A DNA stretch of 64,000 bases from an uncultured Thermoplasmatales archaeon (GCA_964346655.1 CAYFVP010000126.1:7877-71876); one strand, 5' to 3'; numbered from the stretch's first letter, positions 59,291 through 62,280 are shown. A program made the numbers and translations. Notes: generated by a model from the sequence alone, not told the origin.

Positions 59291-59995
59291 ATGAATGCTG
59301 TAATACTTGCTGCAGGACGAGGAACAAGAATGCCAGAAATTACAAAAGATAAACCAAAATCTCTAATCGAAATATCTGGAAAGACAATACTTGAAAGAGA
59401 AATAGAAATACTTACAAAAAATTCGATTAAGAAAACATATGTAGTGATCGGATATATGGCAGAAAAAATTAAAAATAAATTTGAAGACTCTAAAGATATT
59501 GAATTTATTGAAAATAAGGATTTTGCTACCACAGACAATATATATTCACTTTATTTAACACGTGATAAAATAAGAGGAAAAGAATTTTTACTATTAAATG
59601 GAGACACAGTTTTTGAAGAAAATATAATAAAAAAGCTGGTTTCAAAAAAAGGATTGAATTTAGCTCCAATTGACAGTAATCATTATGATCTTGAGGAGTT
59701 AAAAGTAAAAGAAAAAAATAGTATCATCATTGAAATTTTACCAAAAACAGCTCCAAAAGAACAAAGTGATGGATCAACAATAGGGGTATTTAAATTTTCA
59801 TGTGAAGGTAGTAAAATCTTATTTGATGAACTTGAAAAACTAATAAATGAGGGAGTAAAAAACAAATGGTTCGAACATGCATTAAACAACATATTTGAGA
59901 AAATTGAAATGCATAAAATAGATATCAGTGATTTAAAATGGATAGAAATAGACGATGAAGCAGATATAAAAAAAGCTCAAGAGTTATTTAAGTAG
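59291..59995 (+). CDS. Short nucleotidyltransferase (LicC/IspD-like cytidylyltransferase; CDP-alcohol forming by context)
   Basis: 234 aa; 'MNAVILAAGRGTRMPEITKDKPKSLIEISGKTILEREIEIL'. Confidence 0.6.
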   Translation: MNAVILAAGRGTRMPEITKDKPKSLIEISGKTILEREIEILTKNSIKKTYVVIGYMAEKIKNKFEDSKDIEFIENKDFATTDNIYSLYLTRDKIRGKEFLLLNGDTVFEENIIKKLVSKKGLNLAPIDSNHYDLEELKVKEKNSIIIEILPKTAPKEQSDGSTIGVFKFSCEGSKILFDELEKLINEGVKNKWFEHALNNIFEKIEMHKIDISDLKWIEIDDEADIKKAQELFK

Positions 59996-60000
59996 ATAAA

Positions 60001-61038
60001 ATGAAAATAGGTATTATTGGCACCGGAATGTTTGGTTTTTCAATAGCCAGATATCTTGGGAAAAAACACATTCAAAATAATAATATCAATTTAAGTACAT
60101 ATGACATTAATAAAAAATTAATCGAATATCTAAAGAAAAAGAGATTGCATCTTTATCATTTTAAAAATAAAAAACTACCTGATAATATCTCTTTTACGTC
60201 TGATAAAAAAGAAATTGCAAATAATGCAGATATAATTGTTATGGCAGTTGAATCTCAATCTACAAGAGAAGTAATTAAAGAAATCAGGAATTATTTGAAA
60301 AATAAGGTGATTATTCTTAATACAGCAAAAGGCTTAGAAATTGATACTGCTAAAATATTTTCTGAGGTAATTAAAGAAGAGCTTAATGATACAAAAATTG
60401 ATTATAAAATTGCCAAAATATCAGGTGGGACATTTGCTGAAGATATGGTAAATGACGCCCCTCTTGGTGCAGATATTGCTTGTGAAGATCAAGAAGTTCT
60501 TAAAAAGTTACAAGAAATATTTCATGGTAAAACATTACGCATATATGGAAATACTGATTTAATTGGCGTTGAATATGCTGGAGCATTTAAAAATGTAATA
60601 GCAATTTTTGCAGGAATAATAAATGGATTAGGATTACCTTATGGTAGTGAAACTCATATAATTTCAAGAGCTGCAAAAGAGGCAAGAGATATAGCAATTG
60701 ACCTAGGAGCAAAAACTCATACTTTTTCAATGGAAAGTCAATGTTGGGGAAATGACCTTTGGATGAGTTGCACTGGAAAATCAAGAAACAGAGAGTTTGG
60801 TAGATTAATTGGAGAAGGATTGAAACCAAAGAATGCACTAGAAAAATTACAAGCAGCTCATAAACTTGTTGAAGGATATTATACAGTTGAATCTATTCCA
60901 AACCTGTGTAAAAAAACAGGTGTGAATGCCCCTATATTTAATGAGATTTATAAAATGGTTCATGAAAATAAAGAACCATCTGAATCCATGGAATATTTAA
61001 TGAAAAGAAATGTCGAGGATATTGGATTAAATTTTTAA
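60001..61038 (+). CDS. gpsA: NAD(P)H-dependent glycerol-3-phosphate dehydrogenase family (GpsA-like)
   Basis: 345 aa; 'MKIGIIGTGMFGFSIA'; 'GVEYAGAFKNVIAIFAGIINGLGL' matches the GpsA 'GGALKNVIAI' motif. Confidence 0.75.
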   Translation: MKIGIIGTGMFGFSIARYLGKKHIQNNNINLSTYDINKKLIEYLKKKRLHLYHFKNKKLPDNISFTSDKKEIANNADIIVMAVESQSTREVIKEIRNYLKNKVIILNTAKGLEIDTAKIFSEVIKEELNDTKIDYKIAKISGGTFAEDMVNDAPLGADIACEDQEVLKKLQEIFHGKTLRIYGNTDLIGVEYAGAFKNVIAIFAGIINGLGLPYGSETHIISRAAKEARDIAIDLGAKTHTFSMESQCWGNDLWMSCTGKSRNREFGRLIGEGLKPKNALEKLQAAHKLVEGYYTVESIPNLCKKTGVNAPIFNEIYKMVHENKEPSESMEYLMKRNVEDIGLNF

Positions 61039-62280
61039 TAATTTTATTAACTCTTCAATACAACGATCAGATGACTTTCCATTTTTATATAAAAATGCTT
61101 TATTTAGAACTACATCAAAGTTGGGAGCGTATTTTTTGATAAATTTTTCAGAATCTTTTAAAGCGTCCTTTAATGAGTCCATTAACTGATCTTTTGTGTA
61201 AACAATAGCACCAGCTCGCTCATTAGGAGTGAAACAAAACTCACCATAAGGGTTTGGCCGATCAATAAATATTATTGGTTTTCTTTTCAACATAAAATCA
61301 AATGCAATACTTGACCAATCAGTTATTAGTACATCAGTTACTGATAAAAGAGTATAAGTATCAGGATATTCTTCCATTGAAATCCAGCTAATGTTTGAAT
61401 ATTTTGAAAGAACATCATTTACATCTGTTGATTTTTTTCCCTCCCAATATCTATGAGTTCTAATCACAAAATGAGTATTTCTATATCTGTGTGCAAAATT
61501 ATCAAATAAAGCTAGTGTCTCCTTCCAATCAGACCAAGGAAACAAGCCCATACCTGTATAATGACCCCAGGTAGGTGCATAAAGAATTATTTTTTTATCA
61601 CTAGGAATTCTTAACTCTGTAAAAATCTTTTTTCTATTAATCTTCTTAAAAAGAATATCATTTCTTGGATAACCAGTGATTCTAAATATTTTAGGATAAT
61701 ACCCTTTTTTAGAATAGGATTTTTTCATAAAATCTGATGTAACACAAAAAATATCAGGAGGAATAGGAACTTTATCAATATATACATCTTTAAATGGTAT
61801 TCCATGCCATAATTCCATTCTTTTAACAGAAAAATTTCCACCAACATATTCAATTTTGCCAGATTTAAACTTAATTGCAAACTCCCCTAAAAAATCTCTT
61901 AGAAAATCACTAAATTTTGAACGTCTTGTAACAGGAAGATAGCTTTCACCATGTGAGGTAACAAACAAATTTGTTTTGGAAAAAATTGGAATAGCCCGAA
62001 TATCATGCCACCAATAAGCATTTATTCCTTTTTTCTTTGAAATTTCGACTTGTTCTTTGTTTGGAGAGGTAAAATAGATATGTATCTTATTATCTTCCAA
62101 GAGTTTACTATTATTTAACAAATAGTCAAGTAATCCTTTAATATTTCCACCATACCATGCTGAAGAAAAACCAATAAACAAGTGGTTATCTGAGTTTATA
62201 TGTCCTTTTCTATAAAAAAAGACAAGTAAGCGAAATAGAGTAGTAAAACCTATATTATAATATTCTTGAATTGCTCTCAT
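61027..62280 (-). CDS. CDP-glycerol glycerophosphotransferase family (TagF/TagB-like)
   Basis: 417 aa; 'KKIILYAPTWG' and 'DVLITDWSSIAFDFMLKRKPIIF' TagF-family motifs. Confidence 0.75.
   Translation of the reverse strand: MRAIQEYYNIGFTTLFRLLVFFYRKGHINSDNHLFIGFSSAWYGGNIKGLLDYLLNNSKLLEDNKIHIYFTSPNKEQVEISKKKGINAYWWHDIRAIPIFSKTNLFVTSHGESYLPVTRRSKFSDFLRDFLGEFAIKFKSGKIEYVGGNFSVKRMELWHGIPFKDVYIDKVPIPPDIFCVTSDFMKKSYSKKGYYPKIFRITGYPRNDILFKKINRKKIFTELRIPSDKKIILYAPTWGHYTGMGLFPWSDWKETLALFDNFAHRYRNTHFVIRTHRYWEGKKSTDVNDVLSKYSNISWISMEEYPDTYTLLSVTDVLITDWSSIAFDFMLKRKPIIFIDRPNPYGEFCFTPNERAGAIVYTKDQLMDSLKDALKDSEKFIKKYAPNFDVVLNKAFLYKNGKSSDRCIEELIKLLKI

Follow-up and report, generated by a model that had tools for sequence, protein, structure and literature searches.

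The stretch of DNA analysed here, referred to below as the window, comprises 64,000 nucleotides (nt) from an uncultured Thermoplasmatales archaeon (GCA_964346655.1, CAYFVP010000126.1:7877-71876). Towards its end lie three genes that we interpret as a probable module for adding glycerol-phosphate to a surface glycan. A nucleotidyltransferase of the LicC/PntC/IPCT cytidylyltransferase type (NTase; 59291-59995, plus strand, 234 amino acids (aa)) is followed after 5 nt by GpsA, an NAD(P)H-dependent sn-glycerol-3-phosphate dehydrogenase (60001-61038, plus strand, 345 aa), and the pair forms the end of a long same-strand glycan operon spanning 50509-61038. Converging on it is a TagF-family CDP-glycerol glycerophosphotransferase that consists of the GT-B catalytic region only (61027-62280, minus strand, 417 aa). 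The 3' ends of GpsA and the TagF-like gene overlap by 12 nt, with the GpsA stop codon TAA at 61036-61038 and the TagF stop codon at 61027-61029 on the minus strand. An original prediction, made from the sequence alone, had placed three open reading frames (ORFs) at these positions with stop regions overlapping by 12 nt; its coordinates proved exact, and the peptides 'KKIILYAPTWG' and 'DVLITDWSSIAFDF' that it quoted both occur in the 417-aa translation. The identities it gave the genes are borne out by Pfam and NCBIfam matches together with catalytic residues, and, judged by sequence, the family assignments of all three proteins are far beyond chance.

The TagF-like protein matches PF04464 (Glyphos_transf) at 4e-35 and 121.8 bits (cut-off 22.1), covering positions 9-365 of the 367 in the profile. 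A profile of 31 homologues matched S. epidermidis TagF (3l7i) at 2e-59 over residues 320-717 and TarL at 5e-48, as well as the capsule polymerases Cps3D and Bcs3. Within the 31 homologues H159 and H276 never vary; they align with TagF H444 and H584, the positions mutated in the deposited structures 3l7j (H444N) and 3l7m (H584A). Both histidines are essential for TagF-like enzymes (PMC11924219). The original prediction had made its case depend on conserved catalytic residues, and both are present. By its sequence features the protein is a member of PF04464, with the testable defining features of the family in place. It has no clear transmembrane segment, the top Kyte-Doolittle 19-residue window scoring 1.11, and in this it resembles the peripheral TagF.

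GpsA scores 262.9 bits on NCBIfam NF000942 (cut-off 257) and 204.8 on NF000940 (cut-off 202), and carries both Pfam domains of the enzyme (PF07479 at 1e-35, PF01210 at 6e-32). Its best solved relative is the T. maritima glycerol-3-phosphate dehydrogenase 1z82 (1e-38). Residues K110, K197, N198 and D252 align with K120, K204, N205 and D260 of human GPD1, and S256, R262 and N263 with T264, R269 and N270, which we take to be the catalytic and phosphate-binding residues of GPD1; the Thr-to-Ser change is conservative. Retention of the Arg and Asn that hold the phosphate of dihydroxyacetone phosphate (DHAP) argues against a Gtp1-like dihydroxyacetone reductase. Family score and active site together support the earlier claim that this GpsA would give the 'bacterial' enantiomer, sn-glycerol-3-phosphate.

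The NTase matches PF12804 (2e-13), PF00483 (4e-10) and PF01128 in Pfam. The TagD-type family PF01467 gave no Pfam match to it, so it is not a TagD-type enzyme. Searched against the PDB, its family profile aligned over the full length with LicC (3e-24), PntC (5e-23) and A. fulgidus IPCT (2e-18), and likewise with the bifunctional form of IPCT (2e-17); all of these relatives are CTP-dependent. An AlphaFold (AF2) model built from 29 homologues reached a pLDDT of 94, and its best Foldseek matches were PntC, IPCT and LicC (TM 0.74-0.88, E 4e-17 to 3e-16). R13, K23 and D105 are invariant across the family, within the motifs G-x-G-T-R, P-K and N-G-D. They share these motifs with R16, K26 and D112 of IMPCT (PMC12275187), an equivalence at the level of motifs, drawn without a direct alignment to 4JD0. 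The family is tight, with members of about 235 aa and 56-80% identity among many metagenomic sequences, and its named members come from Hydrothermarchaeota and Thermoplasmata.

We mapped the window proteins onto 29 metagenome loci, cited below by L number, and several exact-match contigs. Twenty-three loci were evaluable, carrying the NTase at 56% identity or more together with downstream sequence (20 mapped loci plus L117, L120 and L121), and in every one of them GpsA directly follows the NTase on the same strand within about 10 nt. Fifteen loci had enough downstream sequence to look for the third gene, and in 10 a PF04464 gene converges on GpsA. Five of these partners (L082, L083, L089, L090 and L093) belong to a close subclade with 48-69% identity to the window protein and four (L091, L095, L097 and L103) to a distant subclade at 25-30%; the partner in L121 is known as a TagF-family protein from its Pfam call only. 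Since the partners come from at least two distant subclades, the partnership appears to be functional and not merely inherited synteny. The arrangement of NTase-GpsA and TagF is kept in the closest relatives (L082, L083, L089 and L090), and in L082 and L090 synteny extends over the entire sugar cluster. PF04464 genes also adjoin more remote NTase relatives, there with no GpsA, in L118 (archaeal Thermoplasmata, 50% identity) and L119 (bacterial, 44%).

The pair also has other partners. A bifunctional IPCT/DIPPS-like gene precedes it in L100 and L117, with a full-length match to NF041135 (6e-70) that stays below the cut-off, and small CDP-alcohol phosphotransferase genes are its neighbours in L120 and L102. 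Work by Rodrigues and colleagues in 2007 reportedly found that DIPPS-type enzymes accept CDP-glycerol when making glycerophosphoinositol, in which case the L100 and L117 partners would independently point to CDP-glycerol as the product. With TagF partners in some loci and CDP-alcohol phosphotransferases in others, the NTase-GpsA pair is most simply read as a portable cassette for the supply of CDP-glycerol. From this context, namely the adjacency of GpsA in 23 of 23 loci and the PF04464 or DIPPS-like partners, we predict that the NTase is a CTP:sn-glycerol-3-phosphate cytidylyltransferase.

A likely destination of the glycerol-phosphate was suggested by related loci. In L095 and L097 the module has AglB/STT3 genes (PF02516 plus AglB_core) at a distance of about 1-2.5 kb, separated from it by a GT2 glycosyltransferase gene alone in L095 and by a GT2 and a GT4 gene in L097. 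The intervening GT2 proteins are 44-46% identical to the window GT2 (58415-59209, plus strand), which is encoded directly upstream of the NTase. This Dol-P-sugar-synthase-like (AglJ/AglG-like) protein matches PF00535 at 7e-26 and the NCBIfam models for AglG (1e-13) and AglJ (3e-7), both below cut-off, and has a C-terminal hydrophobic segment at residue 236. L091, L096, L097 and L102 encode flippases of the Wzx type. As a separate observation, the module in L121 (6517-13516, an archaeal contig) is flanked by genes for a sulfotransferase and for a member of the sulfatase/LtaS superfamily (PF00884), the latter with GT4 and GT2 genes after it, an arrangement that hints at further anionic modifications of the same glycan.

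The window module itself stands within a cluster of sugar-nucleotide genes. The operon starts at 50509-55828 (plus strand) with an epimerase/dehydratase gene and genes of a GDP-D-glycero-D-manno-heptose-type pathway (HddA-like kinase, GmhA-like isomerase, GmhB-like phosphatase and HddC-like NTase). NCBIfam matches in this segment (NF049969 1e-53, TIGR00441 1e-28, NF006506 7e-45, NF049965 3e-29 and TIGR00875 2e-51) are all below the equivalog cut-offs, and the segment is syntenic in L082 and L090. Next on the plus strand comes a gene set for making a 2,3-diacetamido-sugar nucleotide, with synteny in L082, L090 and L099: a WbpD-like hexapeptide acetyltransferase (55825-56322, PF00132), a WbpE-like DegT aminotransferase (56325-57422, PF01041 at 1.5e-111) and a WbpB-like GFO/UDP-GlcNAc 3-dehydrogenase-like protein (57403-58374, PF01408), which matches the archaeal UDP-GlcNAc 3-dehydrogenase model NF040723 at 9e-55, below cut-off. 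The surroundings had been described as a heptose/diacetamido-uronate cluster, and the heptose and diacetamido parts were recovered at 51467-58374. The dehydrogenase able to supply the 'uronate' was located just past the window end, as seen on the identical Logan contig L001.

Two further genes sit among the heptose genes. A fructose-6-phosphate aldolase (FSA)/transaldolase gene (53682-54350) is kept at 82% identity in L082, L090 and L099 and may supply sedoheptulose-7-phosphate to the heptose pathway. A 188-aa ORF (54494-55060), also within the sugar-nucleotide operon, has an N-terminal hydrophobic segment that ends in the lipobox-like GLSGC; in the syntenic L082 its slot is taken by an unrelated 359-aa ORF.

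Divergent from the TagF-like gene is a 390-aa protein (62387-63559, plus strand) that is also encoded head-to-head with TagF in L082, L083 and L090 (59-63% identity). Neither the protein nor its family profile gave a sequence match in Pfam, NCBIfam or the PDB, hhalign found the family unrelated to the TagF profile (probability 0.6%), and a single-sequence AlphaFold prediction (pLDDT 44) was discarded. The family is large and unannotated, with 1183 representative clusters at E<=1e-3, and six of 44 members match Glyco_transf_4 or Glycos_transf_1 weakly. Based on these matches, the protein is probably a divergent GT-B (GT4-like) glycosyltransferase.

Taken together, we put a probability of roughly 60% on the reading that the three genes form a glycerol-phosphate decoration module in an archaeal surface-glycan cluster, fed by a portable CDP-glycerol cassette. 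GpsA would reduce DHAP to sn-glycerol-3-phosphate, as its family and active site predict, and the LicC/IPCT-type NTase would join this product with CTP to give CDP-glycerol, the substrate being suggested by the invariant linkage of the two genes. The TagF-family enzyme would then move glycerol-phosphate from CDP-glycerol to an acceptor hydroxyl with release of CMP. This order of reactions, from DHAP to transfer, is the chemistry put forward in the original prediction, and families and active sites support it. As acceptor we consider most likely a lipid-linked oligosaccharide that the neighbouring GT2 and GT-B-like transferases would assemble at the cytoplasmic face, using heptose and 2,3-diacetamido sugars; the glycan may then be flipped and delivered by AglB to surface proteins, or transferred to another surface glycoconjugate. 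The presence of GpsA in the operon could be explained because archaeal lipids use glycerol-1-phosphate, so that no standing pool of the 3-phosphate enantiomer would exist. As a hypothesis, the operon-encoded GpsA would be a dedicated source of that enantiomer, feeding the pathway and insulating it from lipid synthesis.

Several observations weigh against this reading. Five of the 15 loci with enough downstream sequence have no TagF gene, which indicates that the NTase-GpsA cassette is not dedicated to glycans. The glycan destination is extrapolated from loci whose TagF genes are just 25-30% identical to that of the window, and AglB, a flippase and an initiating phosphoglycosyltransferase are all absent from the window itself, where the cluster runs on past the end at 64000. 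The substrate of the NTase is assigned from gene context, and its same-fold relatives use phosphocholine, phosphonates, inositol-1-phosphate or phosphoglycerate. The rationale for the need of GpsA leans on two or three comparison loci that are bacterial or lack GpsA; L118 is archaeal yet lacks the gene. Finally, the taxonomy of the host is based on one conserved protein, ELP3, and on gene content rather than ribosomal markers.

The alternative that survives best is that the TagF-like enzyme is a processive polymerase of poly(glycerol-phosphate), or of poly(glycosyl-glycerol-phosphate) together with the GT-B-like neighbour, and makes a true teichoic-acid- or capsule-like polymer. The nearest solved relatives of the enzyme, TagF, TarL, Cps3D and Bcs3, are polymerases, and the head-to-head GT4-like gene recalls the pairing of TagF-like and GT4 domains in Cps3D and C. 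jejuni HS1.09 (PMC11924219). However, PF04464 also includes TagB and TarF, which make single additions, and sequence alone cannot separate the two modes. The NCBIfam equivalog models for TarF and TarL match only the C-terminal half of the protein, scoring 63 and 58 bits where the cut-offs are 550 and 1000. A scan of ORFs of at least 120 aa found no TagO, TagA, TagGH or LCP-type genes in the window, and neither linkage-unit genes nor an ABC exporter of the TagGH or KpsMT type are present there. The AglB and Wzx-type flippases of related loci handle short oligosaccharides, and these loci favour decoration of a lipid-linked oligosaccharide in an AglB pathway over a wall-type polymer. The words 'polymerase' and 'envelope polymer' in the original prediction are accordingly not upheld, and we regard a polymer as unlikely.

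Another alternative is that the NTase activates a different substrate, such as glycerol-2-phosphate (as in pneumococcal Gtp), phosphoglycerate (CpgD), phosphocholine or a phosphonate, and that the transferase adds that group. Phosphocholine, 2-aminoethylphosphonate and inositol-1-phosphate are the substrates of the closest solved relatives of the NTase, the family is labelled 'phosphocholine cytidylyltransferase family' and 'choline kinase' in databases, and an IPCT-like bacterial enzyme uses phosphoglycerate (PMC12275187). On the other hand, it is a canonical GpsA, with the DHAP phosphate-holding residues kept, that adjoins the NTase in all 23 evaluable loci, and the partners, PF04464 and DIPPS-like proteins, are known users of CDP-glycerol or CDP-alditols. 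No choline kinase, phosphoenolpyruvate mutase or third conserved gene (a possible glycerol 2-phosphotransferase) accompanies the pair in the related loci. A CDP-2-glycerol pathway, which had been raised earlier as an alternative product, was rejected on the retained Arg and Asn of GpsA and the conservation of two genes only. Activation of another substrate is in our view distinctly improbable.

It is also conceivable that the product fed by the cassette is soluble, for example a compatible solute of the glycerophosphoinositol or diglycerol-phosphate type, or is a lipid head group as in an archaetidylglycerol-like lipid, and that the position of the cassette in a glycan cluster is incidental. 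The IPCT/DIPPS-like gene ahead of the pair in L100 and L117 fits such a role, as do the small CDP-alcohol phosphotransferase genes in L120 and L102, where there is no TagF nearby. CDP-glycerol-dependent solutes are known in Archaeoglobus (cited in PMC8262930). Against this, the window has no CDP-alcohol phosphotransferase, and the pair ends a sugar-nucleotide/glycosyltransferase operon and overlaps the 3' end of TagF, in an arrangement kept in the four closest relatives. For the window, a compatible-solute role was rejected on these grounds, and the chance that the glycan position is incidental seems slim. The operons with IPCT/DIPPS-like, LicC-like NTase and GpsA genes (L117 4452-7466, a Hydrothermarchaeota metagenome-assembled genome, and L100 3-2709, a metagenome contig) are of interest in their own right, as candidate genes for a glycerophosphoinositol-type compatible solute and for an archaeal glycerol-phosphate cytidylyltransferase.

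The relationships of the TagF-like protein were examined in a neighbour-joining (NJ) tree of 196 homologues, which carries no support values and serves as a rough guide. In this tree the window protein falls into a 17-member clade nested in a 76-member group, well apart from the TagF set of Firmicutes and Actinobacteria. Three contexts in the larger group outside the window's own clade were inspected (L084, L086 and L087), and all are archaeal. The Methanobrevibacter TagF homologues nest among the Firmicutes, which suggests that they and the window gene stem from separate transfers. Other archaeal TagF homologues appear to use other activation modules, as judged from the partners in the three inspected loci. 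In L086 the TagF homologue shares its locus with an NTP_transferase gene and STT3, and in L087 a TagD-like gene accompanies the homologue on a 422-kb marine archaeal contig. In L084 (6046-9179; Bathyarchaeia, genome GCA_041082175.1) the TagF-family gene adjoins a TarI/TarJ-like pair, a cytidylyltransferase of the IspD type with a Zn-alcohol dehydrogenase, suggesting a module for CDP-ribitol and ribitol-phosphate in archaea.

These observations allow a broader proposal, which we hold tentatively and at somewhat less than even odds. The LicC/IPCT-like family of about 235 aa would be an archaeal CTP:glycerol-3-phosphate cytidylyltransferase not recognised before, and the cassette would explain many of the sporadic archaeal GpsA genes that have no assigned function. 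Taken with the archaeal clades of TagF-like transferases encoded near AglB, N-glycans or surface glycopolymers bearing glycerol-phosphate, or also ribitol-phosphate in Bathyarchaeia, would be widespread in sediment and marine archaea.

The host is archaeal with high confidence, as judged from its genes. All named relatives of the window ELP3 are archaeal; the nearest, with 74% identity, comes from Thermoplasmatales archaeon SG8-52-3, and others include Hadarchaeales with 62%. SG8-52-3 belongs to the Thermoprofundales (MBG-D, for Marine Benthic Group D), an order that carries gingipain C25, interpain C10 and M14 carboxypeptidases (PMC6461988). Peptidases of all three families are present in the window (27687-30068, 34884-36209 and 40854-43652), as is an archaeal DUF7343 helix-turn-helix protein. 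A Thermoprofundales-like (MBG-D) member of the Thermoplasmatota is indicated with moderate confidence. The original prediction had allowed for a Firmicutes bacterium with an ordinary wall teichoic acid locus, but a Firmicute is not the source of the contig. A bacterial or mis-assembled contig with an ordinary low-GC teichoic-acid or capsule locus has a negligible chance and was rejected: the low GC of the window (0.26-0.41), the absence of any match in tRNA and Rfam scans of it, with no rRNA, and the bacterial type of many genes (GpsA, TagF, heptose pathway) would fit, but they are outweighed by the archaeal ELP3 relatives, the DUF7343 protein, a weak archaeal integrase match, the grouping of the TagF protein with archaeal contexts and the AglB, MCM-WHD, eRF1, Cdc6, L37ae or Pcc1 genes carried by loci with 60-70% identical module genes.

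Elsewhere in the window, a tyrosine integrase (80-1384) matches PF00589 and, weakly, the archaeal Phage_integr_3. It is followed by a low-GC block (0.26-0.28) with three ORFs that have no Pfam match (1444-3585) and a Beta_propel-domain protein (3775-5745), and then by core-metabolism genes at a GC of 0.36-0.41; the segment 80-6000 may be an integrated mobile element. The region 6063-26178 is a CoA-ester/redox block encoding methylmalonyl-CoA mutase large and B12 subunits, MaoC hydratase, acyl-CoA dehydrogenase, hydantoinase/oxoprolinase A and B, an OYE-type flavin reductase fusion, HdrD-like and MvhD-fused oxidoreductases, a family III CoA-transferase and an aldehyde:ferredoxin oxidoreductase with its ferredoxin subunit. 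At 27687-49184 lies a set of large secreted-type proteins that comprises the C25 gingipain-like peptidase, the C10 peptidase with an inhibitor domain, the M14 carboxypeptidase, which bears NosD-like repeats, and FG-GAP/PKD and PQQ-propeller/PKD proteins of 733 and 1010 aa. A life based on protein degradation has been described for Thermoprofundales, and the set fits it.

Glycans bearing glycerol-phosphate are characteristic of the walls and capsules of bacteria. Mammalian alpha-dystroglycan was shown to carry the group only in 2016 (PMC8587909), and if such archaeal glycans are indeed widespread, alditol-phosphate glycans would exist in all three domains. The earlier description of an archaeal glycerol-phosphate polymer as essentially undescribed holds in part. 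Teichoic-acid gene homologues and phosphate-rich walls of Methanobrevibacter ruminantium were discussed in 2010 (PMC2812497), and Archaeoglobus is known to synthesise CDP-glycerol, as cited in PMC8262930, where the gene behind the glycerol-phosphate cytidylyltransferase activity of A. fulgidus is described as unidentified. Teichoic acids and glycan phosphodiesters go unmentioned in a 2018 review of how archaeal cell surfaces are made. In the open-access literature we found no account of an archaeal glycan bearing glycerol-phosphate, of the NTase-GpsA operon, or of a glycerol-phosphate cytidylyltransferase role for the NTase family.

If our reading is true, abundant uncultured sediment archaea would bear an anionic phosphodiester decoration on their surface glycans, with a bearing on cation binding, virus recognition and S-layer anchoring. 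The reading also offers a testable function for archaeal GpsA genes, namely the supply of CDP-glycerol rather than of bacterial-type lipid backbones, and nominates a candidate gene family for archaeal CDP-glycerol synthesis. Archaeal GpsA genes are sporadic, have been judged unlikely to act in membrane synthesis and are discussed mainly in the debate on the 'lipid divide' (PMC6431249), and an earlier study reported no informative operon context for them (PMC5059525).

Among known systems, the TagF, TarF, TarL and TagB enzymes of wall teichoic acid synthesis share with the window protein the PF04464 family, the catalytic region (TagF 320-717), both histidines and the predicted CDP-glycerol donor. 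The wall-teichoic system differs in that the host here is an archaeon without peptidoglycan, that TagO, TagA, TagD and TagGH are absent from the window and that the N-terminal extension of TagF is missing. In addition, the window clade is separate from that of Firmicutes and Actinobacteria in the unsupported NJ tree, and the likely acceptor is an N-glycan-type lipid-linked oligosaccharide. With no TagD-type enzyme and no TagO, TagA, TagGH or LCP in the window, and no peptidoglycan, the module is not a member of the Gram-positive wall-teichoic-acid pathway. The logic of TarI and TarJ is similar, in that a reductase makes an alditol phosphate, an adjacent Rossmann-like NTase activates it with CTP and a PF04464 enzyme transfers it; the reductase there is a Zn-alcohol dehydrogenase acting on ribulose-5-phosphate, whereas here it is GpsA, and the window NTase is nearer to LicC, PntC and IPCT than to IspD and TarI. 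TagD/Gct enzymes (PF01467; Aquifex AQ1368 and AQ185) share the predicted reaction of the window NTase but belong to an unrelated fold family.

The closest folds to the NTase include IPCT, which together with DIPPS acts in the synthesis of Archaeoglobus and Aquifex solutes and whose relatives stand in the L100 and L117 operons. Solute synthesis in these organisms differs in using a CDP-alcohol phosphotransferase as partner, in contrast to the TagF-family enzyme in a glycan cluster here, and the Archaeoglobus activity reportedly prefers glycerol-1-phosphate, whereas the window cassette is predicted to make glycerol-3-phosphate. The enzymology of the pneumococcal CDP-2-glycerol pathway is said to have been worked out by Wang and colleagues in 2010. 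That pathway, Gtp1-Gtp2-Gtp3/WchX of serotypes 15 and 23F, likewise combines a cytidylyltransferase of the NTP_transferase fold, a reductase and a glycerol phosphotransferase in a glycan locus (PMC1391919). It differs in needing a third enzyme, the glycerol 2-phosphotransferase, and in having a reductase that acts on unphosphorylated dihydroxyacetone, whereas the 23 loci conserve two genes only and GpsA keeps its phosphate-binding residues.

The capsule polymerases Cps3D, Bcs3 and C. jejuni HS1.09 of Gram-negative pathogens also resemble the module in their logic, with TagF-like domains that work outside Gram-positive walls together with a GT-B glycosyltransferase and a dedicated CDP-glycerol synthase. 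They are multi-domain fusions served by ABC export and TagD-family cytidylyltransferases, whereas the window module consists of separate proteins with a LicC/IPCT-type cytidylyltransferase and an operon-encoded GpsA. Three features appear to be new: a cytidylyltransferase that is not of the TagD type, the strict way in which it is coupled to GpsA, and the association with AglB.

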